This document shows, piece by piece, positions 49,242 to 64,000 of a stretch of DNA of 64,000 nt. Where the stretch lies: the NCBI GenBank assembly GCA_965238215.1, contig OZ250180.1, positions 2,661,524-2,725,523 of the forward strand. Direction: 5' to 3'. Position 1 is the first letter of the stretch. Each line of letters begins with the position of its first letter. The notes below the pieces were generated by a model that saw only the letters and a program-made list of their open reading frames with translations, searched no databases and had not been told where the DNA came from. The DNA is from Dehalococcoidia bacterium. GTDB lineage: Bacteria > Chloroflexota > Dehalococcoidia > Lucifugimonadales > GCA-2712585. Made by a program: the position numbers and the translations under genes.

Positions 49242-50155
49242 ACTATCTCCAGGCCCTTCAGAATCAGCTGAATGCCGATTACCAACAGCGCCAGCGAAAG
49301 CAGCTTCAGAATCCAGCCGCCTTGAAAGAACCTGGACACGTAGACCCCCATCTGCGCCCCCGATACCACTCCCGCGCCTATGAGCAGGGCCGGCACAATG
49401 TCAACGTTGCCGTATATAACATGCCCCACCGTCCCGATGCTGGTGTAGATGGCCTGGGTGAATACGGACGTGGCCGTGGCGATTATGACTGGAAAGCGGA
49501 ACAGATAAACAAGCATCGGCGTCCGAACAGGGCCACCACCCATGCCGAAGAAGCTGGAGAGAAACCCAAAAAGTCCGTTGGTGGCTACCGCCCCGGGTTC
49601 GTTGTACATATACCGGAACGTGCCCTGATCGGATGTCTTTATTCGCCGGATTTTGGAGCCGAAGGCGCGAGCCCGGGCCGGCATGCGGATGCCCCGGACC
49701 GTCCCAGGAGGTGGCGGTTTCGCCTTGTATTCCGGACGTAGCATTACGTAAAGTCCCAGCAGGCTGAGAAAAGAGCCGAATATCACCTCGAAGGGGCCCT
49801 CCGTCACCGCCTTCAAGCCCAGAATCCCCAGCAGCGAGCCGGGTATTGCGGCCATGCTGAATAGAAGCGCTGACCGCAAGTCCACCCGCTTCAAGTACAG
49901 ATAGGAAACCGACCCGGATATGGAAGCCAGCGCTACGGTAAATAGGCTGGTGCCCACGGCCAAGTTGTGGTCCATGCCGAACAGGATGATGAGGAGCGGC
50001 GCAACAATGAAGCCCCCGCCGGAGCCTATGAGCACCCCGTAGCCGCTGGCAAAAAACCCCAGAACCACCAGCCCCAGGGCGGCAAGAATCGTTAGCTCAT
50101 CCACTGTCCGCCGGTCTCCGTTTTCCTTTTGGGAGGATAGGCGGATACTATACAT
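49238..50155 (-). CDS. TauE/SafE-family anion (sulfite-type) exporter
   Basis: It is a multi-TM protein with two GxGGG-like segments (LIGSGGGFIVAPLL; FFGMGGGPVRTPML). The likely start is ATG 50155. The track extension to 50263 translates a REP-like element. Confidence 0.78.
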   Translation of the reverse strand: MYSIRLSSQKENGDRRTVDELTILAALGLVVLGFFASGYGVLIGSGGGFIVAPLLIILFGMDHNLAVGTSLFTVALASISGSVSYLYLKRVDLRSALLFSMAAIPGSLLGILGLKAVTEGPFEVIFGSFLSLLGLYVMLRPEYKAKPPPPGTVRGIRMPARARAFGSKIRRIKTSDQGTFRYMYNEPGAVATNGLFGFLSSFFGMGGGPVRTPMLVYLFRFPVIIATATSVFTQAIYTSIGTVGHVIYGNVDIVPALLIGAGVVSGAQMGVYVSRFFQGGWILKLLSLALLVIGIQLILKGLEIV

Positions 50156-50280
50156 GACCGCCGTCAACCTAGCTACGCACCCTCGCTGCCTGTCATTCCG
50201 AGTCCCACGAGGAATCTCGCCGCCCACCATGATCCCGCCCATCAATTCCAGAAACGGCCCCAAAATGGTATAATTTCTCC

Positions 50281-50979
50281 ATGAAGCTGAAAGAGTTGCA
50301 CTCTTGGAACGTTCCGCCTCAGGAAGCCAGGGGCATACAACAGCAGCTGGCCCAGCAGGTCTTGCGGGAGAACCACGTGCCCGTGGGCGCCCGGCTCATA
50401 GCCGGCGTCGACATCTCCGGCGTTAACAGGCAGGGCCTCGCCACCGGCGCCGTGGTTGTCCTAGACGTCCCCACCTTCACCATTCGTGAAGTACGCACCG
50501 TTCAAGCCGAGCCTCCCATGAAATACGTCCCCGGCCTCTTATCATTTCGGGAGGTTCCCGTTCTGGTTCAAGCCCTGGAGACCCTGACCACCATCCCAGA
50601 CCTAATCATGGTGGACGGACAGGGCATTGCCCACCCCCGTCGATTCGGCATCGCCAGCCATCTGGGGCTGATCATGGACCTCCCCGCCATAGGCTGCGGC
50701 AAGTCCATCCTTACCGGCAAGCACGAGTCCCTGGACGAACATCGGGGCGCGCAAGTCCCCCTCATGGACCGGCAAGACCACTTGGGCATGGCCCTGCGCA
50801 CCCGTACCAACGTCGCCCCCGTATACGTATCAGTGGGCCACAAGATAGACCTGGATACCGCCGTCAAGTGGGTCCTTTCCTGCTGTCGCGGCTTTCGCTT
50901 GCCGGAACCTACCCGTCTGGCCCATCAGGCCGCCGCCGGTCGCCTGACTTATGCGACGCCCAACGGTGCGTCAGCCTAG
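50281..50979 (+). CDS. nfi: Endonuclease V
   Basis: The 232-aa ORF reads IAGVDISG...YVPGLLSFREVP...DLIMVDGQGIAHPRRFGIASHLG...IGCGKS. Confidence 0.9.
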   Translation: MKLKELHSWNVPPQEARGIQQQLAQQVLRENHVPVGARLIAGVDISGVNRQGLATGAVVVLDVPTFTIREVRTVQAEPPMKYVPGLLSFREVPVLVQALETLTTIPDLIMVDGQGIAHPRRFGIASHLGLIMDLPAIGCGKSILTGKHESLDEHRGAQVPLMDRQDHLGMALRTRTNVAPVYVSVGHKIDLDTAVKWVLSCCRGFRLPEPTRLAHQAAAGRLTYATPNGASA

Positions 50980-51038
50980 CTGCTGATACCTTCGTCAATC
51001 CCTTCAATACCGCAACGGCAAACACTGGAGAAGCGCAA

Positions 51039-52152
51039 GTGCAAGAGTTGAGACACAAGCTGCAGGAGACGACCCGGAGGGTGGACCAGATCCTGGAGCA
51101 TCTTTGACGTTCCCGATAAAGAGACCCAAATTGCGCGTATAGAGAAGGAGTCCTATAACCCGGACTTCTGGCAGGACCCACCCAAGGCCCAGTCGCAAAT
51201 GCAGCGGCTTACCCACTTGAAGGACACTGTGCAGGCTTGGCATGGCCTTCGCGACCAGGGTGCCTATCTACTGGAACTGGTGGAAATGTCTCTGGAAGAA
51301 GGGGACGACTCCCTTGAGCCACAGATAACCAAGGAATCGGAGTCCTTCCTGGACGACCTGCGGGAAAAGGAGATGGAACTCACCCTCTCCGGCCCCTACG
51401 ACCGACGGCCCGCCATCCTGTCCATCCAATCAGGCGCCGGCGGCGTAGACTCCCAGGACTGGAGTCAGATGCTCCTCCGCATGTACCTTCGATGGGCGGA
51501 ACGCCGTGGCTGTAAGGTGCAAATGCTTAACCTGTCCGATGCCGACGGCGGGGGAATCAAGAGCGCGGCGTTGGAGATTTCCGGACCCCTGGCCTTCGGC
51601 TACCTCAAGGCGGAAAAGGGCGTTCACCGGCTGGTGCGTCTTTCCCCCTTCAACAGCGACCACCTTCGCCACACCTCCTTCGCCCAAGTCGTCGTGCTCC
51701 CAGCCGCCGACGAGGAAGACGCAGAGGTGGAGATTCGGCCCGAAGACTTGAAGATTGACTTCTTCCGCTCCAGCGGACCGGGAGGACAAAACGTCCAGAA
51801 GGTCGCCTCAGCCGTCCGGCTGACCCACCTGCCCACCGGATTAGTCGTAAGCTGCCAGACAGAGCGCTCCCAGCACCAGAACAGGGAATACGCCACCACC
51901 CTCCTTAAAGCCCACCTGCTCCAGCTGCGTTTGGAAGAGCGCGCCAAGAAAATGGCGGAGCTTCGCGGCAAAAGGGTCTCCGCCGAATGGGGGAGCCAGA
52001 TTAGGAGCTACGTGCTCCACCCCTACCGTATGGTGAAAGACCACCGCAGCCAACACCAGGTATCCGATGCCGCCGCCGTACTCGATGGCGACATCGACGA
52101 TTTTCTAAAGGCATACCTTCTGGCCTCCGTTGGGGGAAACGTCCACCCGTAA
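51039..52152 (+). CDS. prfB: Peptide chain release factor 2, requiring a programmed +1 frameshift at 51105
   Basis: Frame 0 runs from GTG 51039 (GGAG lies 8 nt upstream) and reads VQELRHKLQETTRRVDQILEHL, then CTT TGA C. The +1 frame continues DVPDKETQIARIEKESYNPDFWQDPPKAQ... into ORF 51199..52152 (51199-51106=93). It has the RF2 SPF motif (RLSPFNS) and GGQ (SGPGGQNVQK). Confidence 0.92.
51095..51108 (+). promoter_or_regulatory. RF2 autoregulatory frameshift site
   Basis: GGAG-CAT-CTT-TGA-C has the same layout as the E. coli site (SD-like element, 3-nt spacer, CUU UGA C). Confidence 0.88.
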
Positions 52153-52162
52153 AGACGGCACA

Positions 52163-53482
52163 TCATCTCCTGCCCATAGCCATATGCCGCGATTCCGGCA
52201 GTCCCCGGAGTCTCATCATCGCGGCTATCCCCACCACCGGCCCGATAGCGAGGAAGGCGAACGCCCACCCCCAACCGGCAGCGTCGGCTATCAGGGGTAC
52301 CAGCCGGATCGTCAATATCGTCAGAAGAAACCCCACCCCCGTCTGGAAGGTCAACGCCGTGCCCCGGTAGGCCTCATCGGAAAGCTCCGTCATGCCCGTG
52401 GAGAACTGCGCCGAGTCGGCTATCACGAACACCCCCCAAGCCAACGCAGCCACGGCAATCAACCACCTCAAGTCCGCATCGATGAATCCGATGAACAGCG
52501 CAATGCCCCCGCTCAATACCATGGCCGCGCTGGTGACCAGGCATCGACCCCATCTTTCGGCAAACCAGCCTGCGGCGAAGCTCCCAACACCGCCGGCCAG
52601 GAAGACCAGGAAGGCAAGCAGTCCCGCCAGTCCCAACGAGCCGCCCGCCAAACTCCGCCCACCGAACACCGCCAGCAGGTAGGTCGGAATCCAGGCCCAC
52701 ATGGCGTACAACTCCCACATGTGCCCCAGATAGCCTATGAGGACCAGTCGGGAGGCCCGATTCTTCATCACGTGAACCACGAACCGTGGGTTGAATTTGG
52801 GCGCCGGAACGTCAAATGGCCCGTCGGCAACCAGGAGGTAGACCACCCCTCCGGATACGACCGCTAGGGCCGAGCTCACAAAGAGCGTAGTTTCCCACTG
52901 GGCGGTAAAAATGGCGCTTAGAAGGTGGGGCGAGCCGGATCCCAGCGTCAAAGCGCCCACCATCGCACCTATGGCGATACCCCGGCCGGACTTGAACCAA
53001 CCCGCAATTATCTTCATGCCGGGCGGGTAGACTCCGCCAAGAAAAGCACCCGCGAGAATCCGCAGAACTAGTGCATAAGCAAAGTCCTGCGGCACAAATA
53101 CCAGCGCAACGTTGACGACGCCCGCCATGATGGAGCAGACGGCAAACAGGGTGCGCGTATTGACCAGATCCGCCAGGTTGGTGAAGGCGATGATAAGAGT
53201 CCCCGCCACGAAGCCCAACTGCACCGCCATAGTGAGCCACGCCAGATGGTCTTGGGAGTAGCCCCTCTCCGCCTCCAGCGCGGGCGCGATGGCATTGGCG
53301 CTGAACCATACGCTGAGGCTCAGCAACGTCGCCAGTGACATCAGGGCTAGGGTGCGCCATCTATTGGGCGATTCCTCGCTTGTCAACGCATTGCCTGGAG
53401 TGTTTGCCGCCAGGACGCTCGTGCCTCCGGTACTATTTGTCCTCCTGCAGCCGCTCATGCCGACAAGATAGGACAGCGCCAA
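52163..53482 (-). CDS. MFS transporter
   Basis: The 439-aa ORF has about 12 TM helices and MFS-like loops (ILAGAFLGGVYPPGMKIIAGWFKSGRGIAIG). Confidence 0.8.
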   Translation of the reverse strand: MALSYLVGMSGCRRTNSTGGTSVLAANTPGNALTSEESPNRWRTLALMSLATLLSLSVWFSANAIAPALEAERGYSQDHLAWLTMAVQLGFVAGTLIIAFTNLADLVNTRTLFAVCSIMAGVVNVALVFVPQDFAYALVLRILAGAFLGGVYPPGMKIIAGWFKSGRGIAIGAMVGALTLGSGSPHLLSAIFTAQWETTLFVSSALAVVSGGVVYLLVADGPFDVPAPKFNPRFVVHVMKNRASRLVLIGYLGHMWELYAMWAWIPTYLLAVFGGRSLAGGSLGLAGLLAFLVFLAGGVGSFAAGWFAERWGRCLVTSAAMVLSGGIALFIGFIDADLRWLIAVAALAWGVFVIADSAQFSTGMTELSDEAYRGTALTFQTGVGFLLTILTIRLVPLIADAAGWGWAFAFLAIGPVVGIAAMMRLRGLPESRHMAMGRR

Positions 53483-53578
53483 GTGTACCGGAGAAGCAGG
53501 GGACTAGACTACCTGTGGTGGCGGCAAATCCCTATGCGTGACTGTCGTTGAGGGGTGGCTCGTGGTCGCAACCCGGGT

Positions 53579-54595
53579 TCAGCCATCCAAAAGGGAGTCA
53601 AACAGTTCTTGCCACTTGTCGGATCCGCTGTAGCTGGAACGGGAAACTATTATCCCGTTAGCGTCTAGGACCACGGCTGATGCCTGCACGGTTATCCGGT
53701 AATCGTTGTTCGCGTCACTATCGTAGACCGTCATTGACCAGGTGAAGCCGTTCGAATTACTCCATGACTCGATCTGTGAAGCGCTTTCCCCTGGGTCTTG
53801 GCCAATACCGATAACGTGAACGCGTCCCTCATATTCGGGGTATATCCCTGTGAGGCTCCGCAACGCGGAGCGACATTTGGGTCACCAGGTGGCGAAGTAG
53901 TAGAGGATGACCGGGCTGCCCCGCAAACTGGATAGCGAAATCTCCTCCCCGTCCACCGAGGTCAACGTGAAGCCCGGCCCTTGCTGTCCCACCCTGCTTC
54001 CCACCTCCACGGCCACGGGTTCCGGCGTAGGGGCCGGCGTGGGGGCCGGGGTTGGTGTAGGAGTAGGTGGCTCTGGCGTCGGGGTGGGAGGCGGCGGCGT
54101 GGCTACAGCCGTCGCCGCGGCTGTTGGCGCGGGCGCGGCGGGAGTCGCCTGCGGCGGCGCAGATGTGGATGCCGTTGGAGTGGCAGCAGGCGGTGCCGGC
54201 ACAACGGTCGAGCTTTCGGCTGGAGCAGGCGTTGGTCGGGATGCCGACACAACAGCCGTTGCCGCCGGCGCAGGTGTAGAAGTTGGCGCTGCTGCTGTAG
54301 GCGCAGCCTGCGTAGGTGCAGATGGGGAAGCGGTGGACGCGCTGGCTATCGGGGCCGAAGTCGGCGTTGCCGGGGGCGTTGTATCAGCAGCCGTAGTCGC
54401 CGGCGGGGTTGAAGTCGGAGGGGCGGGAGTGGGCGGAGGGGCAGTCTGAGTTGGCGGCGCGGTCGCGGCAGTTGGCTCAGAGGTAGCGTCAGTGTCTATG
54501 ACAGTAACGTCACCGCCGCAAGACGCGACGAAAACAGCCATCAGGAGGACGGCTGTCAGCAGAATCACGCTCAGGCTGCGGACATTCACATGCAT
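53579..54595 (-). CDS. TlpA/redoxin-like thioredoxin-fold lipoprotein with an in-frame UGA (probable selenocysteine, U-P-K-C active site)
   Basis: Track ORFs 53882..54595 and 53579..53863 are in the same frame, 7 codons apart. Read-through gives ...ILYYFATW-U-PKCRSALRSLTGIYPEYEGRVHVIGIG... It has lipobox FVASC and a ~155-aa P/T/A linker. A hairpin follows the UGA. Confidence 0.6.
53855..53884 (-). promoter_or_regulatory. UGA codon plus candidate bacterial SECIS hairpin
   Basis: The minus strand reads UGA CCCAAAUGUC GCUCCGC-GUU-GCGGAGC. This is a perfect 7-bp stem, and the apical loop starting G,U begins 17 nt after the UGA. The stem is extendable by UGU/ACA across a small internal loop. Confidence 0.5.
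54017..54484 (-). repeat. Low-complexity Pro/Thr/Ala-coding region
   Basis: It encodes TSEPTAATAPPTQTAPPPTPAPPTSTPPATT...[27 protein letters not shown]. It shares the [11 protein letters not shown] flavour with the 30130..30423 linker. Confidence 0.8.
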
Positions 54596-54698
54596 TACTA
54601 ACCTATCTACGCCTTATCAAACCAGTCAGATTCATAGAATTCTAGGATCTGTCCTTCCCGCCCGATAAGCTGCTCGACGAAGAAAAACCTCCCAAGAT

Positions 54699-55898
54699 TT
54701 ATTCCAGCATCCCCTCCTCTTCCAGGAAGGCCGCCAGGTTCGCAACGCCCTGACGAATGGTATCGTGGGTCAGGTGGCCATAGCACAGCCGCAGGTAGTT
54801 GTAGGCGTCCTGTCCGGGAGAAAAGTTGGTGCCGGGGCCGTATCCAATCTGCCGCTCCCTCGCCTTGGCCAGAACGGCGGCGGTGTTGGCGCCCTCCGGC
54901 AGCTTCAGCCAGAGATACAGACCGCCGTCCGGGTCGCTGCATTCCGCCCTGGAACCGAAGTATTCGCCCACGGCGGCTACGGCCGTGTCCTTCCTTGAAC
55001 GGAAGATTTCTCGCAACTCCTGAACGTGTTCATCCAGATGGTCCTGTAGATAGTACAGGGTGGCGAGGGCCGAAAATTGGCTGGGCGTAGCCCCCAGGTG
55101 TATGGCCTTCACCGCGTCGATGATCGACGGCGGCGCGGCCATGAATCCTAACCTCATGCCAGGCGCGACTATCTTCGAGAAGGAGCCACAGTAGAGCACC
55201 GAGCCTTCCTGGTCCAACGACTGGATCGCCGGAGAGTTTTCCCCGTCGAAGCGCAGGTCCGCGTAGCAGTCGTCCTCGAAGATCGGGAGGCGGTGTCGTT
55301 GGGCAACGTCCAGCACGTCCTGTCGTCGTCCAAGGCTCATGTCGGTGCCCGTGGGGTTCTGGAAGGTGGGGATAGTGTACAGAAACTTCGCCCTCTGACC
55401 CCGGTCTCGCAGGCTGGCGAGGATGTCGTCCAATGCGCTGGGGATTATCCCCTCTTCGTCCACGTCGACACCCACGAGCCGAGCGCCGTGGCGTCGCATG
55501 ATTCCCATGGTGCCGGAGTAGCTGAACTTCTCCGTGAGAATGATGTCGCCGGGATCAGTAAGAAGCTCCACGTATCGCGCCACGGCCTGGCCGGAGCCGG
55601 TGGTGAGCAAAATCTGGTCGGGCGATACGTTCATCCCCCGCTCCTGCTCCAGCTTCTGCGCGATGAACTCCCGCATGGCGGGGTGCCCTTGGGGATGGGG
55701 GTAATAGACCAGGTCCTTGCCTTCATCCTTCAGGGCGCGGCCCAGAGCCTCCAAGAGGCCGTCGGCGGGGAAAGAGTCCGGGTCCGGAAACGCCGTGGTG
55801 AAGTCGAAAGCGACGCGCCCCCCGCCGGGAGCGGCCTTGGGCGCAGGCGGAATCCCCCGGGCGATTCGGTCCGAAAAGTCGAAGGTATTTGCAGTCAT
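54699..55898 (-). CDS. PLP-dependent aminotransferase, class I/II fold
   Basis: The 399-aa ORF has the PLP-lysine motif CGSFSKIVAPGMRLGF and also IPTFQNPTG. Confidence 0.85.
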   Translation of the reverse strand: MTANTFDFSDRIARGIPPAPKAAPGGGRVAFDFTTAFPDPDSFPADGLLEALGRALKDEGKDLVYYPHPQGHPAMREFIAQKLEQERGMNVSPDQILLTTGSGQAVARYVELLTDPGDIILTEKFSYSGTMGIMRRHGARLVGVDVDEEGIIPSALDDILASLRDRGQRAKFLYTIPTFQNPTGTDMSLGRRQDVLDVAQRHRLPIFEDDCYADLRFDGENSPAIQSLDQEGSVLYCGSFSKIVAPGMRLGFMAAPPSIIDAVKAIHLGATPSQFSALATLYYLQDHLDEHVQELREIFRSRKDTAVAAVGEYFGSRAECSDPDGGLYLWLKLPEGANTAAVLAKARERQIGYGPGTNFSPGQDAYNYLRLCYGHLTHDTIRQGVANLAAFLEEEGMLE

Positions 55899-55992
55899 GG
55901 ACCCTCCAGAAAAGTGCTAAAACAACGCCGCAAGTATATCACCCCACCCACCCAAGGGCTAGCCGAATGTTGGAGTGGAAGAAGGATAAAGC

Positions 55993-56020
55993 TTGACACG
56001 ACTTAACCATATTATATAAT
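55993..56020 (+). promoter_or_regulatory. Near-consensus sigma70 promoter at the left edge of the low-G+C islet
   Basis: TTGACA (55993..55998), a 16-nt spacer, TATAAT (56015..56020). Confidence 0.5.
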
Positions 56021-56044
56021 GGCCAGTAGCCATACATTATAGCA

Positions 56045-56329
56045 ATGTACGCAGTATTACAACGATATAGACTGGATTTACATATGCAGAATACGATAGA
56101 GACAAGGCCACAGAAATTTACAAGGCTTGCTGAACAGCGGGTAAACAGTATTTTGGATAAAATACGTCTATTGGGACAGTTATCCAACCGCAGCAACTAT
56201 GAATATACCGATGCTCAAGTAGAAATGATCTTCAAGGCCATACAAAAGGACCTGAGCGCCGTTAAGTTGAAGTTTAGAGAGGGTTCCAATGGCCGGAAAC
56301 GCTTCTCTCTGAATGAAATGACGGATTAG
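56045..56329 (+). CDS. Hypothetical small protein, first gene of the islet
   Basis: The ORF is 94 aa, or 81 aa from ATG 56084 (MQNTIETRPQKFTRLAEQRVNSILDKIRLLGQLSNRSNYEYTDAQVEMIFKAIQKDLSAVKLKF...). It looks helical and I recognise no motif. Confidence 0.4.
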   Translation: MYAVLQRYRLDLHMQNTIETRPQKFTRLAEQRVNSILDKIRLLGQLSNRSNYEYTDAQVEMIFKAIQKDLSAVKLKFREGSNGRKRFSLNEMTD

Positions 56330-56384
56330 ACCGCTCTGGCTTGAACCCATATCTGCGATGTTGAACCTGATTTAGGAGTGCGCT

Positions 56385-58764
56385 ATGCCTGACGCGGGAC
56401 TCTCTCCACAAAAGCTCTGCATGGATCTTTTGCATGCCGATACAGAGGAAACAGTTATTGACCTCCTCAAACAAGCAGGTTACTGGGACAACCCAAAAGC
56501 TTGGCGGCCCTTCGGTGACAAAGAGGACAACTTCTCTACCATAGGCAATCAGGCTAGGACACCAGAGGGTGCTCTGGTCGAAAAGCTGGTTAACTCCGTC
56601 GACGCCGTCTTGATGGGAGAATGTTGGTCAAGAGGAATTCGCCCCAACTCTAACCAAGCGCCAGGAAGCATCTAAGGATGCGGTAGCACAATTCTTTGGT
56701 GACGGTTCAAGACCAGAAACCCAGGGAGACCTTAGCTCGTGGCCTGACAAAAAACTGCGTAAGGTTTCCAATTTGATTACAGTAGCAACTACCGGTACGA
56801 GGGGAAATCCCAGCATTACAGTTGTAGATGCGGGAGAAGGACAAAGACCAAGGGATTTACCTGATACTATCCTCTCCTTGGACAAGCAGAACAAGATAGA
56901 TATTCATTTTGTGCAGGGTACTTTCAATATGGGAGGCACGGCTGCACTGCGATTTTGTGGAGAGCGAAATTTGCAACTCGTAATTAGCAAGCGGAACCCA
57001 AACATCGAATCTGATCGGGACAAGGACTCTTCCGCAGATCAATGGGGATTTACGATAATTCGCAGGAAAGACCCATCAAGCAACAGAAAGATGTCTACGT
57101 ACAAATATCTTGCTCCAGAGAAAAATGCCGTCTTACGGTTCCATGCCGCGTCTCTGCCGCTATTCCCTGTATTCAATAGGGCCTATGCTCGCCCTACAGA
57201 GTGGGGAACGGCAATCAAGCTTTATGAGTACAAGCTGGACGGCAGGAGCCATGTCCTTCTCAGAGGTGGTCTCTTGAGACGTCTGGACATTCTCTTACCA
57301 AGTATAGCTTTGCCCGTAAGGCTCCACGAATGTAGGAGCTTCAAGGGACGATCCGCCAGTTTCGATAATAGCTTAACTGGGCTAAGGGTGAGACTAAGTA
57401 ATGAACGCAATTTGGAATCCGGATTCCCCAAAAGCGGCAGCATGGTAATTAATGAGCAAAGGATGTTCATAGAAATTTACGCCTTCAAAAAGGGAGGAGC
57501 AGCTACCTATATGAAACCAACTGAAGGCATCATATTTGCTGTCAACGGACAAACTCAAGGGAAGCGACATAGAAAGTTTTTCAGTAGACGATCAGTGGGT
57601 ATGAATCGACTTGAGGATTCAATACTGGTGGTCGTCGATTGCAGCCTCATAAACGGTCGGCATAGAGAAGACTTGTTCATCAACGACAGAGACGGTATGG
57701 CGGAAGGGCCATTTCTGAAGGCGATAGAGCGAGAGTTAGAACTAATCTTGAAAGGCCATCAAGGATTGAGGGACCTACGAGAGAAACGCCGTAGCGACGA
57801 CATAGCATCAAAACTAGAGGATTCGAAACCATTCAAAGATCTGCTAGGGGACGTGATCCGTAAGTTTCCAGTATTGACATCGCTATTTGGAGATGGCGGA
57901 CCTTTATCCAATCCGGTTAGACCAGAAGAGGTAAAGCCCAAGATAGAGTTCATGGGGAGATCCCATCCCACCATCTTTTACTTCCGCAACAAGAACTATG
58001 GTGAGAAGCTGTATAGAACTACCCCCTTAAACATGCGTAGCAGGATCATTTTTGAGACTGACGTGGCAGATGACTATTTTACTCGTGGAAGATATCGCGG
58101 AGAGTCCACACTTCACCGACTGAATGATCCTCCCAAGAATGGAGCACTTCCTAAGCATGGACTCAATCTGGATAACGGCGTTGCTACACTGAATCTCGCA
58201 TTGCCTCAACACCCGAAAGTTGGTGACACATATGAATACGAATTCAGAGTAAGCGATGATACATTACTGGAGCCCTTTGTTAACTATTTCTCAGTGTCGG
58301 TGGGGCCTTTGCAAAAGAAGCGCCCTCATCCCCCGGTGCCACCCCCGAGCTTAGCTGTTCCTAATGCGATACCAGTGTACAAATCAAATTGGAAGGATTA
58401 TGGCTTTGACGAGTACTCAGCCTTGAAGGCTATCTATGACCCATCCGATGATGGGTCAACTGGTTCGCACACCTATTACATAAACATGGACAACTTCTTC
58501 CTAAGGACTGAACTAAAGTCGGCTAAATCGAATGTTGAAATCTTGAAGGCCAAATGGTTATACGCAATGGCACTCATAGCTATGGCTTTGCTACGTGACG
58601 ATAAAGCCAATAGTTCTTCTAACGGAAATAGACGGAAAGAACAGGGCCATGATGGAGATCTATCACCTGAAGAGAAAGCGTTTGGAGCAACGAAAGCCAT
58701 CGCACCTGTACTCTTGCCAATGATCCAGCACCTAGGTGGGTTATCGGATGAAAATATCAGTTGA
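56385..58764 (+). pseudogene. GHKL (Bergerat-fold, MORC/paraMORC-like) ATPase of about 790 aa, interrupted by a 1-nt frameshift near 56670-56675
   Basis: ORF 56385..56675 carries the N-box (EKLVNSVDA). ORF 56773..58764 carries G1 (ITVVDAGEGQ) and G2 (GTFNMGGTAAL). The second frame is open back to 56614 and reads ...KDAVAQFFGDGSRPETQGDLSSWPDKKLRKVSNLITVATTG. SD AGGAG lies 7 nt before ATG 56385. It could instead be a sequencing error in an intact gene. Confidence 0.65.
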
Positions 58765-58782
58765 GGAAGCTAAGAAAGCAAA

Positions 58783-59958
58783 TCAAACGATGGGCCGATG
58801 AACTAGTAAAATTTCCTTGCTGGCGGAATTTTCGGGGATTGGGTGGGTATACCACCGCCTATTCGGTACAGAGCGTACTAGACGAGATTGAATTGGACCG
58901 TCAGAGGTTTCTTCGAATCCGGCATCCGTCATCGTCTCCAAATACTTTGGCAACTGCACGGCGGGGTCACGGAAAGACACAAGCTGTACAACCTTAGCAT
59001 CGGCAGCGACTATGCTCCTTATGTTCTTGAAGGCAGAAGATAAGTTGCTGAAATAGTTGCTCATTCCTAATGCGGAGCGCCCCCCCATGGTATAAAACGA
59101 TTCTCCGTGGCCGTCGCGTAGCTCGCCGAGCCAGTAAGGAGCTGGTGTCTCCCGTCTTCCAAGAACCTGCCACCTATGATAGAGAACGTGCACCCCGGGA
59201 TATGGCGGAGATGTAAGGACCAACTTGGGTCTAATCTGGTGTCTTCGCAGATGGAAGGTTAGGAGTCCATTAGACGCGGAGAGGCGGAGGATTTGCCGTC
59301 CACTTGTTATTTTGTTCTTGCGAATTCCCCTCGACCTTGCCGCACCAACAAAAGCATTCAATCCCGCTATCATCTTCTCTACGGTAATTCGAAGTTGGTC
59401 ACTGAGTTCCTTCGAGTCGGGTACGGATTTGCGCGCATCTAGAGCCCACTGTCCGACCCCAATTAAGGCGCATCGCGCAAATTGGCGACGCCGCGGAAAT
59501 CGCAGGTTTCTAGCCAATCTTATCGCCGAATCAAAGAACGGGAATAATTGGATTGGCATGTTCCGGACAGGAGATCCGGAACGCGGGTAGAATTCTGGCA
59601 ACTCGTAGTCAAAACTGCAAACTTGGCGAACCCAGCCTCGAACCTCGTCCACATCCTGGGGGCTTAATGGGGTGGTCTTGACTCTTGTAACAAACTGAGC
59701 CAGTTCGTTTATGTCTGAGCCAATAACACGCCGTCCAGAAGCTGCAGCTTCTACAATTGTGGTCCCTCCACCCATAAAAGGGTCGAAGACGAAGTCCCCT
59801 GGCTTTGTAAAGTAATCCAGAACGAAACGAACAAAGCGTGGACTAAACCGTGCTGGGTATTTGTAGAAATTGTGAGTGAAGCCTTCCACTCTCTTAGTGG
59901 AGTGGAAGGCTTCACCAAATTGCATATCTTTAAGCCCCAAGTCTCCAAGTGTCAACAA
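58783..59958 (-). CDS. DNA methyltransferase (N4-cytosine or N6-adenine) with SPPY catalytic motif
   Basis: The 391-aa ORF has an AdoMet motif FVFDPFMGGGTTIVEAAASGRRVIGSDIN near the N-terminus. The catalytic motif LVLTSPPYPG lies ~190 aa later, an alpha-like order with an intervening target-recognition region. It is convergent with the ATPase gene, with an 18-nt gap. Confidence 0.85.
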   Translation of the reverse strand: MLTLGDLGLKDMQFGEAFHSTKRVEGFTHNFYKYPARFSPRFVRFVLDYFTKPGDFVFDPFMGGGTTIVEAAASGRRVIGSDINELAQFVTRVKTTPLSPQDVDEVRGWVRQVCSFDYELPEFYPRSGSPVRNMPIQLFPFFDSAIRLARNLRFPRRRQFARCALIGVGQWALDARKSVPDSKELSDQLRITVEKMIAGLNAFVGAARSRGIRKNKITSGRQILRLSASNGLLTFHLRRHQIRPKLVLTSPPYPGVHVLYHRWQVLGRRETPAPYWLGELRDGHGESFYTMGGRSALGMSNYFSNLSSAFKNIRSIVAADAKVVQLVSFRDPAVQLPKYLETMTDAGFEETSDGPIQSRLVRSVPNRRWYTHPIPENSASKEILLVHRPIV

Positions 59959-60016
59959 GATGCGTAATTGTTAGAGCTAGGGCAGTCAGTTGTCAAGCAT
60001 TTTTGCCCCTCGCCCT

Positions 60017-60045
60017 TTGCCCGCCCTTGGGGGTTGTGCTATACT
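60017..60045 (+). promoter_or_regulatory. Candidate rpsB promoter with extended -10
   Basis: TTGCCC (60017..60022), a 17-nt spacer ending in TGC, then TATACT (60040..60045). Confidence 0.4.
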
Positions 60046-60114
60046 CCAATGCGGAGTTTTCCGCTCCTTTCACATCCCCAATTACACTCTATAGAAGGAA
60101 CAAGGATAGCGTTC

Positions 60115-60981
60115 ATGGTTCAACAAGTGCAGAATCAGACGATGCAGCAGCGCCCGCCCGTCACTATGAAGTCTCTCTTGGAGGCAGGGGTCCACTTCGG
60201 GCATCAGACCCGACGCTGGAACCCCCGTATGAAGCCCTTCATTTTCACCCAGCGCAACGGCATCCACATCATCGACCTCCAGAAGAGCCTGCGATACATG
60301 GAAAGGGCCATGAACGCCGTGCGCGACATCGTGGCCGATGGCGGCGAGATTCTGTTCGTCGGCACCAAGAAGCAGGCGCAGGAGTCCATCGCCGAACAGG
60401 CCACACGCTGCGAGATGCCCTATGTCAACCAGCGCTGGCTGGGCGGCACCATGACCAACTTCACCACCATCCGCAAGCGCATCGACTTCATGCTAGAACT
60501 GGAAGCCAAGAAAGAACAGGGCTATTTCGATAACATGATCAAGAAGGAGGCGCTCAAGCTGGAAGAGAAGCTCAAGCGCCTGCAGAAGTATTTCGGCGGG
60601 GTCCGAAACTTGACCAAGCTCCCCGACGCCCTCTTCGTGGTGGACATGCCCAAAGAGAACATCTGCATAGCGGAGGCGCGGAAGCTTGGCATAACCCTGG
60701 TGTCGATAATCGACTCGGACTGCGACCCGGAACTCATCGACTTTCGTATCCCGGGTAACGACGACGCCATCAGATCCATCCGGCTCATTACCACTCGAAT
60801 GGCCGACGGCGTAGTCGAGGGCCTCGCCATGAGACGCGCCATTGAGGAAGAGCGGCTGCGAGAGGAACAGGAATTGGCCGACGGCGAGGAGACCGACGAC
60901 GTCGAGATTGACGTTGACGTTGCGGAGCTAGAAGCGGCGATGAAGGCGGCCCCCACCGCCGCCGCGCCGGTAACTAACTAG
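60115..60981 (+). CDS. rpsB: 30S ribosomal protein S2
   Basis: From ATG 60115 (AAGGA lies 8 nt upstream) the ORF reads ...[40 protein letters not shown]. It has an acidic C-terminal tail. Confidence 0.95.
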
Positions 60982-61004
60982 ACAGAATTTCAGAGTTTTA
61001 GGAG

Positions 61005-62837
<1,833 letters not shown>

Positions 62838-62898
62838 ATAGTCTCACGAACGGCGGGAGCAATCGTCCAGTGCTGGAAAGCCGGATCTAACATTTTCC

Positions 62899-63621
62899 AT
62901 GATTGACAATGGCGTAGGCACAGGCGAATTTCCCAGACACGTAGCCATCATCATGGACGGCAACGGTCGATGGGCGGAAGACCGCGGCCTCCCCCGAATA
63001 GAAGGCCATCGCGCCGGTGTGGAGAAGATCCGCTCAGTTCTAGATATTCTCGCCCGTTACGGCGTCAAGTTCGTCACTCTCTACGCCTTCTCCACGGAGA
63101 ACTGGAGCCGCCCCGACGACGAAGTCGCCGGCATCATGGCCATTCTCCGCCAGGTCATTCAAGATGAAACCCCGGGACTGCACGAGCAGGGAGTTCGTCT
63201 GGTGCATCTTGGCCGCCGCGATCGCCTGCACCCGGACCTTCAGGAAGCGGTTTCTCATGTCCAGGAGTTGACGCAGCATAACGTCGGAGTCACGCTCAGC
63301 GTGGCCTTCGACTATGGCGGACGCAGCGAAATCGTCCAAGCGGTGCGGGAGATCATCCGCAGAGGCGTCAAGGCTGAAGAGGTCGACGAAGAGATGCTCA
63401 GCCGGTATCTCTACACCAGGGATATCCCGGACCCGGACCTGATAATCAGGACCGGCGGCGAGTACCGCCTGAGCAACTTCCTCCTCTGGCAGTCGGCCTA
63501 CAGCGAGTTCTACACCACCCCGGTGCCCTGGCCTGAGTTGGGCCCCGAGCACATGGAGGAAGCCATACAAGCCTATAGCCGGCGAAAGAGAAAATTCGGC
63601 GCACTAAAGTCCGACGGCTAA
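62899..63621 (+). CDS. uppS: Isoprenyl transferase (undecaprenyl diphosphate synthase family)
   Basis: The ORF reads PRHVAIIMDGNGRWA...GH..G...VTLYAFSTENWSRP...IRTGGEYRLSNFLLWQSAYSEFY. Confidence 0.95.
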   Translation: MIDNGVGTGEFPRHVAIIMDGNGRWAEDRGLPRIEGHRAGVEKIRSVLDILARYGVKFVTLYAFSTENWSRPDDEVAGIMAILRQVIQDETPGLHEQGVRLVHLGRRDRLHPDLQEAVSHVQELTQHNVGVTLSVAFDYGGRSEIVQAVREIIRRGVKAEEVDEEMLSRYLYTRDIPDPDLIIRTGGEYRLSNFLLWQSAYSEFYTTPVPWPELGPEHMEEAIQAYSRRKRKFGALKSDG

Positions 63622-63711
63622 TATGTTGCGCCGCAGGCTTCCGCTCTCCCCCCCGTTATCACCATGAAAATACACCGACCCCATGCTGTTGAAGCCAACA
63701 TTGTTGACAAC

Positions 63712-63843
63712 CCGTAGGGGCGGTTCGGGAACCGCCCACCCGTCGCCCACCCGCAATCTTGCTCAACACCACCCATCATTCCCGCACTCCCTCGTTTTTC
63801 CCGCGAAGAGCCTGCCCTCGTGAAGACGGGGGCGGGAATCCAC
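63712..63843. repeat. REP-like palindromic elements in the uppS-cdsA spacer
   Basis: CGTAGGGGCGGTTCGGGAACCGCCCACC lies at 63712..63740 (hairpin GGGCGGTTC-GGG-AACCGCCC). TTTTTCCCGCGAAG-[21 nt]-GCGGGAATCCA lies at 63795..63843 and is a longer variant of the element at 31613..31637. Confidence 0.7.
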
Positions 63844-63953
63844 CTCACTCACCCTGCAATCCCTCTGATGCTTTCATCGAACTACCTTACACTTACAATT
63901 CCGAACGTCGCAGAGCGCGATGCAGCATCTGAAGGAGCGCAACGGCTAATACC

Positions 63954-64000
63954 ATGAAGGCCCGCATCCTCGTTGGCGTCGTCGGCGTTCCCGCCCTTCT
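63954..64000 (+). CDS. Start of a CDS running off the window (possibly phosphatidate cytidylyltransferase, by position after uppS)
   Basis: ATG 63954 opens MKARILVGVVGVPAL..., a hydrophobic start. The product is guessed only from the common uppS-cdsA order. Confidence 0.3.
   Translation, partial: MKARILVGVVGVPAL

Follow-up and report, generated by a model that had tools for sequence, protein, structure and literature searches.

A low-G+C islet in a Dehalococcoidia genome carries a conserved three-gene cassette with a GHKL-S5 ATPase and an amino-methyltransferase: a candidate methylation-linked defence module

We analyzed a 64,000-nt stretch of a Dehalococcoidia genome (contig OZ250180.1, positions 2,661,524 to 2,725,523; hereafter the window) that contains a low-G+C cassette of ~4.05 kb (55940..59996) with three genes: a small basic protein of 81 aa (56084..56329, + strand), a large GHKL-S5 clamp ATPase of 792 aa once a frameshift is repaired (56385..58764, + strand), and a convergent amino-methyltransferase (58783..59925, − strand). 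This islet is best explained as a three-gene cassette of the restriction-modification (R-M) type that is self-contained and was acquired horizontally. Comparative genomics moderately favors a more specific reading, in which the cassette would be an unnamed methylation-gated GHKL-clamp defence module, a variant of the theme set by the paraMORC ATPases and R-M systems.

The data supports a three-gene unit that is conserved across phyla and insertion sites. We compared 71 loci, combining 68 loci from a scan with one genome per species and the loci of P0001, P0015 and P0099. The hosts of the 68 loci comprise Dehalococcoidia and other Chloroflexota, members of the Candidate Phyla Radiation (CPR), Bacteroidota, Pseudomonadota, Planctomycetota, Actinomycetota and one Micrarchaeota archaeon. 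P0001, P0015 and P0099 lie in three different neighbourhoods, and each is preceded on its own strand by an open reading frame (ORF) of 77–85 aa and followed by a convergent N6_N4 methylase. Overall, a methylase of the same family is present in 43/71 loci, mostly convergent and immediately downstream, while the small ORF is present in 42/71 loci and always immediately upstream of the ATPase. The pairwise identities of ATPase and methylase are correlated across 31 cassettes (r = 0.87). The first-pass annotation, made from the letters of the window alone, had staked its reading on an association between ATPase homologues and methyltransferases; the linkage was indeed found in these 43 loci, but the methylase is not obligatory.

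The composition of the islet supports its foreign origin. The G+C content is 47.7% at 55940-59960 and 60.3% elsewhere in the window, and no other 4-kb stretch of the window is lower in G+C (minimum 0.4755; mean 0.594 and standard deviation 0.033 over the 64 kb), in agreement with the sharp drop over ~4 kb that had been judged by eye. The same tendency was observed in the wider set, where the G+C content of the cassette is below that of its flanks in 58 of 65 loci, with a mean gap of 7.3 points.

We characterized the large protein by structure prediction and by residue conservation. An AlphaFold2 model was made on P0001, which is 83% identical to the window ATPase (predicted local distance difference test score, pLDDT, 77.8; predicted template modelling score 0.72). 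In a Foldseek search, the N-terminal ~430 residues of this model matched Hsp90 (7zr0_B, 4.1e-9), GyrB 43K (4wub, 1.5e-8) and MORC3 (5ix2, 4.4e-6), with ParE also among the matches. The model thus supports a predicted GHKL fold followed by an S5 transducer. The N-terminal strap and Bergerat ATP-binding domain cover residues 1 to ~290 (56385..57253), as judged by fold match and motif conservation. The Bergerat fold had already been read from three motifs, all of which we located in the window (EKLVNSVDA at residue 66, VVDAGEGQ at 146 and GTFNMGGTAAL at 178). The residues of motifs I (E66/N70/D73), II (D148/G150/G152), III (Q177-G178...G183) and IV (G274) are kept in at least 56 of 57 intact members, which span 25–100% identity.

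The S5-fold transducer covers residues ~296-430 (57271..57675), according to the secondary structure of the model and to the Foldseek alignments with GyrB 43K, ParE and MORC3 that run through this region. Its N387-G388-Q389 loop (55–57 of 57 members) and R435 are conserved. The protein had been called MORC-like, a label that holds at the level of the GHKL-S5 architecture and fails at the level of sequence motifs: a regular-expression search for the MORC S5 motif (GhXhhpXXRhl) found it in none of 63 family members, nor in the repaired window protein.

The C-terminal half of the ATPase is modelled as three further parts. A long helical, coiled-coil-like segment at residues ~442-500 (57709..57885; predicted helices 442-456, 459-479 and 481-493) precedes an immunoglobulin (Ig)-like beta-sandwich at residues ~531-640 (57976..58305) with a conserved NMRSR..F.TD loop. 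They are followed by a small alpha/beta subdomain with a conserved YYINMDN motif (N700, D702) and then two long hydrophobic helices (58366..58764), which by analogy with the architecture of Hsp90 and MutL would form a putative constitutive dimerisation hairpin. A nuclease in this half of the protein was considered and rejected: residues 510-792, when modelled separately (pLDDT 86), matched only Ig-like domains in a Foldseek search against the PDB (best E ~1e-4). The structure search found no nuclease, helicase or other effector fold here, consistent with the earlier failure to recognise a nuclease or helicase by eye. T558, D559, Y564 and R567 of the Ig-like domain are conserved throughout the family. 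Because the C-terminal polar residues are so widely conserved, it is conceivable that T558, D559, Y564, R567, N700 and D702 form a site for catalysis or DNA binding that has escaped recognition.

The ATPase is part of a large family that none of the profile libraries queried matches significantly. A word-indexed search recovered 2,025 proteins at E ≤ 1e-3, and an exhaustive search recovered 2,908 clusters (50% identity). Of these, 1,011 reached E ≤ 1e-30, nearly all with a length of ~800 aa. The family members listed carry no precomputed Pfam domain. Profile searches of the kind suggested in the first-pass annotation returned no significant model in Pfam, NCBIfam, PADLOC 2.0 or PHROGs for the ATPase, and a sequence search of the PDB was equally unproductive. 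A test for Pfam HATPase_c or HATPase_c_3 above the gathering score failed; HATPase_c_3 appeared below threshold in 8/17 members (best E = 0.039) and reached 11.7 bits in the window protein, against a cut-off of 25. PADLOC gave no match for the window ATPase fragments and small ORF (E ≤ 1), for eight diverse ATPase members (E ≤ 0.1) or for three plasmid-borne relatives (E ≤ 0.01). The hidden Markov models of its 2.0 release for known systems, including Mza, Hma, MADS, BREX, DISARM and Tiamat, matched neither the ATPase nor the small ORF.

In the window, the ATPase gene is split. A 96-aa reading frame (56385..56675) ends in TAA, and a +1-frame continuation runs from 56674 to 58764. When aligned with the DNA of two close relatives, L076 and L001, the window shows an extra T at 56673 (GCATC[T]AAGGAT), which places the TAA in frame (56673..56675). 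Removing T56673 yields a 792-aa protein that is colinear from end to end with ~800-aa homologues, which cover 99–100% of it, and the repaired junction, joining QAPGSI to KDAVAQFF, agrees with the family consensus. The ATPase of ~790 aa that had been reported is therefore correct in its motifs and their places, but it is not an intact ORF. The L076 locus is 94.8% identical overall to the window and has all three genes intact; its 792-aa ATPase and the repaired window protein disagree at 11 of the 792 positions, and the window gene shows no other lesion. Consequently, the frameshift is either a very recent event or an assembly error, and the window gene was under purifying selection until very recently. 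Unless T56673 is an assembly error, the effector would currently be inactive and the methylase effectively orphaned in this genome.

The methylase is an alpha-class amino-methyltransferase (order motif I, target recognition domain, motif IV) by Pfam, PADLOC and its motifs. It scores 53.3 bits against Pfam N6_N4_Mtase (PF01555; cut-off 26.7) and matches PADLOC MTase_II with E = 6.6e-22. The ORF extends to a TTG at 59958 (391 aa), but the most likely start is the ATG at 59925, as called in L076, giving 380 aa. Thus, of an earlier description as a convergent 391-aa enzyme, the length is probably too great, while the tail-to-tail arrangement with an 18-nt gap to the ATPase gene (58765-58782) and the motif spacing hold: DPFMGGGTT at residue 59 and TSPPYPG at residue 250 (391-aa numbering) are 191 residues apart. 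All 31 cassette methylases examined have SPPY. As a rule of thumb only, SPP(Y/F) in motif IV indicates N4-methylcytosine (m4C) and (D/N)PP(Y/F) indicates N6-methyladenine (m6A), and by this rule the methylase is probably an m4C enzyme. Profile and structure searches found no endonuclease fold (PD-(D/E)xK, HNH, GIY-YIG or phospholipase D) in any of the three genes.

The small ORF and the ATPase gene are preceded by a strong promoter-like sequence. The site TTGACA-16-TATAAT (55993..56020, + strand), previously described as near consensus, in fact matches the sigma-70 consensus perfectly (12/12), and most Dehalococcoidia-type cassettes have a match of at least 10/12 in the corresponding place ahead of the small ORF. 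The methylase has a promoter-like site of its own, TTGACA-18-AACAAT (59967..59996, − strand), with a 10/12 match that is conserved in L076. Codons 4-17 of the methylase, just after its likely start, contain an inverted repeat (59876..59915) whose 16-nt arms pair perfectly around an 8-nt loop. L076 has the identical repeat, L001 has an imperfect one and more distant cassettes lack it; it may be an mRNA hairpin acting on translation, an operator or a lineage-specific accident.

The small protein had been given as 81–94 aa, and both lengths can be read: the ORF extends to an ATG at 56045 (94 aa), while homologues and the gene call (P0269) favor the ATG at 56084 and 81 aa. The family consensus is F.RLAE.RVN.IL..IRLLG.LSNRSNYEYT...V.KIF.AI......K.KF.; the window protein had earlier been read as helical. 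The small ORF has no match in Pfam, NCBIfam, PADLOC, PHROG or the PDB, and no helix-turn-helix (HTH) profile was found in it. At one locus, a HARE-HTH protein takes its place upstream of the ATPase (L023, 26-460; Pfam PF05066, 32.8 bits against a cut-off of 25.9), a replacement that may point to an accessory role in DNA binding for the small partner. We also noted a HARE-HTH-like replacement of the 81-aa partner at L027 (211-450), judged by eye.

We next consider the history of the locus. The islet lies between an aminotransferase gene on the left (54699..55898, − strand) and rpsB-tsf-pyrH-frr-uppS on the right, with the rpsB start at ~60115 on the + strand. As had been stated before, it shows no sign of an integration apparatus: there is no tRNA in 50000-64000, no integrase-like ORF among the window ORFs, and nothing convincing among flanking direct repeats, just imperfect matches of 12-19 nt. 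Rfam families gave zero matches in 55000-61000. An empty site without the cassette was not found. The close relatives recovered (L001, L075 and L076) all carry the cassette at the same site; a fourth, L077, consists of cassette sequence only. Colinearity between L001 and the window extends over 7.7 kb at 81% identity and includes the islet, so the insertion is old. Compared with L001, the ratio of nonsynonymous to synonymous substitution rates (dN/dS) is 0.14 for both halves of the ATPase gene and 0.136 for the methylase gene, with 0.045-0.094 for flanking genes, indicating that both cassette genes have been maintained by selection.

The cassette also shows recombination and allele turnover. 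Between the window and L076, the ATPase genes are 99–100% identical in DNA, while the methylase genes are only 67–90% identical from residue ~176 to the C-terminus. This diverged tract spans the convergent 3′ ends (window 58600-59450), which points to recombination. In L075 (2556-6804), the flanks are 94–99% identical to the window and the ATPase core has only 63–68% nucleotide identity; both L075 and L077 carry a diverged cassette allele in which the ATPase and methylase genes are both degraded. Near-identical flanks around a diverged core show that cassette alleles are replaced at one fixed site, a behaviour that is common at defence loci. Elsewhere, insertion sequences (IS) interrupt the ATPase gene and leave the methylase intact: one IS in L016 (7900-8835; transposase of IS3/rve type by eye) and two in L050 (6558-7973 and 9217-10104; IS66-like and DDE-type by eye). 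Carriage by phages or prophages was rejected, as no scanned viral contig encodes a relative of the ATPase.

We found that more distant relatives of the ATPase are linked to other modification chemistries. At 25–30% identity, with the most distant at 25–28%, relatives lie beside C5 cytosine methylases (L057 8259-11518, L065, L068 and L069). In L057, another neighbouring gene resembles PADLOC REase_II models in its N-terminal part and HEPN-type models in its C-terminal part, and it has a weak match to MzaB. At ~30% identity, relatives lie beside Ssp phosphorothioation genes (L063 1384-8406, L064 5837-12862, L072, L073 and L074); the neighbour in L063 matches PADLOC SspD with E = 1.5e-92. Genes for DUF4007/SspB-like proteins, 3′-phosphoadenosine-5′-phosphosulfate reductases and cysteine desulfurases flank relatives on plasmids of Devosia, Ensifer and Hymenobacter (L072, L073 and L074), and Ssp-linked relatives also occur in metagenome-assembled genomes of Bacteroidota. 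Together with the amino-methylase of the cassette, these C5-methylase and Ssp neighbours indicate one clamp family paired with three self-marking chemistries. The ~30%-identity relatives may serve SspBCD as a restriction partner that has not been described before and differs from both SspE and SspFGH. As a separate observation, two plasmids carry, along with the Ssp-linked relative, a ~780-aa gene annotated as a sensor histidine kinase and a gene of 635-680 aa without assigned function.

Relatives without the cassette methylase are often found beside defence or toxin genes. Their neighbours include AbiEii, zeta toxin, an NYN-domain protein, PD-Lambda-5, OLD/Gabija-like ATPases, SIR2, a DUF262/NsnA-like protein and VapBC. 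PD-Lambda-5_A (E = 3e-44) lies directly beside such a relative in L026 (8547-10118), and OLD/Gabija-like ATPases do so in L037 (3806-5803) and L065 (2726-4612).

A methylation-gated mechanism would combine these parts as follows. From its own strong promoter, the cassette would express the 81-aa basic protein together with the 792-aa ATPase, while the methylase, expressed from its own promoter, would mark the host's sites. The ATPase would be a dimer held together by its C-terminal hairpin, and its N-terminal gate would close on ATP, as in Hsp90, MutL, GyrB and MORC. With its small, DNA-binding partner, the ATPase would load onto DNA that lacks the mark, and this unmarked DNA would then be blocked or damaged. 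The proposed role in telling self from non-self and the division of labour among the three proteins are what we infer from the comparative data, and several modes of action would be compatible with them. The ATPase could topologically entrap or compact the DNA, it could harbor a cryptic catalytic center formed by D559, Y564, R567, N700 and D702, or it could recruit a host nuclease.

Several observations weigh against a methylation-gated defence module. The family is known from sequences and models alone, the structure search found no nuclease fold in the ATPase, and the window copy of the ATPase gene is frameshifted. The methylase family is absent from 28/71 loci and was not found among the scanned neighbours of a CPR-type subfamily at ~40% identity, where only the small ORF and the ATPase occur. 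Dehalococcoidia cassettes usually lie among housekeeping genes rather than in defence islands. With frameshifts included, the ATPase alone is disrupted in five cases and the methylase alone in one, a difference that is not significant given that the ATPase gene is twice as long (binomial p ~0.35); we therefore rejected preferential ATPase decay as evidence of toxicity and retain it as a hint only. The sole case of a disrupted methylase with an intact ATPase, L001, comes from a contig of 2x coverage and, if real, argues against lethal autoimmunity.

For the window genome itself, there is a sizeable chance, if somewhat short of even, that the locus is only a decaying remnant, with a pseudogenised ATPase and a surviving orphan methylase that have no current defence function. 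The +1 frameshift with its premature TAA at 56673 and the degradation of both genes in the sister lineage (L075, L077) would fit this outcome. However, the window and the intact L076 ATPases differ at just those 11 residues, the dN/dS of 0.14 means that any inactivation was very recent, and a single-base indel is equally explicable as an assembly error. A remnant in this one genome would be compatible with the explanation that we favor for the family.

Two further mechanisms would change the explanation of the family itself. The small protein and the ATPase could work on their own in defence or abortive infection, independently of any epigenetic mark, by sensing DNA ends, replication intermediates or a phage protein, for instance. 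In that case the methylase would be an accessory or a passenger under selection of its own, and might act as an orphan, as a regulator or in protection against other restriction systems. We consider this unlikely, but well worth keeping in view. The two-gene core stands without an adjacent methylase in many loci, often beside the defence and toxin genes listed above, and in the ~40%-identity relatives without methylase, most of them CPR, the small ORF is retained and often overlaps the start of the ATPase gene; hence, the pair can exist without the methylase. Moreover, the family-wide conserved ATPase residues are alike in methylase-linked and methylase-less members, and the near-identity of the window and L076 ATPases despite their diverged methylases shows that tight co-variation between the two proteins is not required. 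Yet nearly all members above ~44% identity have the methylase gene right next to the ATPase gene and convergent with it, and the two proteins co-diverge. Some relatives that lack this methylase carry a C5 methylase or Ssp genes instead, and such substitute modification modules are the pattern predicted if the ATPase depends on modification.

Alternatively, the cassette could have no role in immunity at all, being a selfish addiction or epigenetic module, or a MutL-like factor that uses the methyl mark in DNA transactions such as repair, recombination or chromosome compaction, comparable to Dam-MutL-MutH. Its architecture is closest to Hsp90, MutL and GyrB, it has no nuclease, and in Dehalococcoidia it sits among housekeeping genes, at one site and under purifying selection over a synonymous divergence (dS) of ~0.65-1.0. 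Its other properties are atypical of housekeeping repair, namely a sporadic spread over many phyla, low G+C content, allele turnover, disruption by IS and recurrent defence neighbours, and to our knowledge m4C methylation of the SPPY type creates no need for repair. We therefore regard a non-immune function as quite improbable, more so than an autonomous pair.

A methylation-gated defence module can be compared with several known systems. The closest concept is that of the MORC/paraMORC ATPases of R-M operons, which comparative genomics predicted as R-M operon partners in 2008 (Iyer, Abhiman & Aravind 2008, PMC2292703). They share with the cassette a GHKL + S5 module, linkage to methylases, a sporadic and laterally mobile distribution and a predicted mark-dependent action on DNA (PMC2292703). 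In contrast, the cassette lacks the MORC S5 motif and has no superfamily II helicase and no partner or fusion with a restriction-endonuclease-fold, HNH, TIR or HKD nuclease. Its ATPase reaches Pfam HATPase_c_3, the profile spanning the described families, only below threshold. The C-terminal half of the ATPase (coiled coil, Ig-like domain, hairpin) is particular to this family, and so is the 81-aa partner. The ATPase could still correspond to one of paraMORC1-5; of the extensions or motifs that mark paraMORC1, 2, 4 and 5 (ExxxH in S5, TIR or HxH), Pfam detects no TIR domain in the cassette proteins.

The closest validated case is VcSduA, that is, Shedu type I-D (paraMORC3), in which a GHKL ATPase is fused to a DUF4263 PD-(D/E)xK nuclease with experimentally validated anti-phage activity (PMC12137116). 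The cassette ATPase shares its N-terminal GHKL domain and clamp-like middle domain. However, VcSduA is encoded by one gene, ends in a nuclease domain and comes without a methylase, whereas the cassette adds a small partner and a methylase; Pfam finds no DUF4263 PD-(D/E)xK match in the cassette ATPase, and its C-terminal part resembles only Ig-like folds by Foldseek. The Mza (Gao_Mza) or Dcm-Vsr-GHKL-Z1-AIPR loci also place a MutL-like GHKL ATPase in a methylase-linked locus, as do L057 and L065 beside their C5 methylases. Nevertheless, no PADLOC model, for Mza or any other system, matches the members tested across the range of the family, and the window cassette has three genes and lacks Z1, AIPR and Vsr.

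The layout of the cassette is also that of a Type II R-M system with a controller (C) protein, with a small ORF upstream of, and co-transcribed with, the gene in the place of 'R', a convergent methylase with its own promoter, and a compact mobile unit without an integrase. It differs in that the place of 'R' is taken by an ATPase clamp without a nuclease fold, and in that the small ORF is not an Xre-type HTH by profile, with C-box operators covered only by the promoter scan, and is kept in methylase-less relatives. Of the two activities that define Type II R-M systems, the cassette has the methylase but no endonuclease with a recognisable nuclease fold. BREX and MANTIS (Gao_RL), methylation-based systems whose effectors are unclear or non-canonical, likewise mark self with an amino-methyltransferase and need ATPases too, but PglZ, BrxC, AAA+ and helicase-nuclease components are all missing from the cassette, which consists of far fewer genes and uses a GHKL rather than a P-loop ATPase.

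A final likeness concerns the relatives rather than the window cassette. Those at ~30% identity occupy the expected place of a restriction partner beside sspB/C/D-like genes, as SspE and SspFGH do in SspABCD-coupled modules. Identity with SspFGH was rejected, since SspF is described with a Walker A motif and SspH as FtsK-like, and neither is a GHKL protein (PMC8092258). MANTIS/Gao_RL, Ambrosia and the two-component-like paraMORC relatives of HEF_HK type have different components, and identity with them was rejected as well. In literature on GHKL ATPases with methyltransferases or defence, paraMORC, SspFGH, component-modularity networks and MANTIS, of which the coverage was partial, no description of the cassette was found, and we provisionally consider it undescribed.

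Upstream of the islet, we made an independent observation on two ORFs of the − strand, one encoding a Pro/Thr/Ala-rich, lipoprotein-like product (53882..54595) and the other at 53579..53863. Together they form one gene with an AhpC/TSA thioredoxin fold (53579-54595), interrupted by an in-frame TGA (~53864-53866) in place of the first Cys of a CxxC motif (…YYFATW-TGA-PKC…). When Cys is put for the TGA, Pfam AhpC-TSA spans the site with E = 9e-17. A 7-bp hairpin (GCTCCGC-GTT-GCGGAGC) that resembles a selenocysteine insertion sequence starts 11 nt downstream of the TGA. Because the interruption is a TGA at the CxxC cysteine, the gene is a candidate selenocysteine (UxxC) protein rather than a pseudogene, and we rejected the split ORFs as a sign of an error-prone assembly.

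The value of these findings lies in the family rather than in the possibly inactivated copy of the window. The family is large, spans many phyla, and has no significant profile match in Pfam, PADLOC 2.0, NCBIfam or PHROGs and no recognisable nuclease; the only validated example of GHKL defence that we found in the literature is the Shedu-fused VcSduA. If the cassette is a defence system, it would be a new, unannotated and very compact type of methylation-based immunity, with particular relevance to the Chloroflexota and CPR, whose defence repertoires are poorly charted. It would also offer a tractable model of a GHKL clamp that reads an epigenetic mark, a mechanism not yet settled for eukaryotic MORCs. 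The family may, in addition, account for some sspBCD loci that lack a known restriction partner.

More speculatively, and with low probability, the cassette could be a minimal, nuclease-free analogue of R-M systems, in which an ATP-gated GHKL clamp, directed by an 81-aa partner that would bind DNA, would topologically trap or compact DNA that lacks the m4C or m6A mark and thereby silence or arrest it, with the same clamp family plugged onto amino-methylation, C5-methylation and phosphorothioation. If true, the cassette would be a bacterial counterpart of the MORC-type, methylation-linked silencing of eukaryotes.

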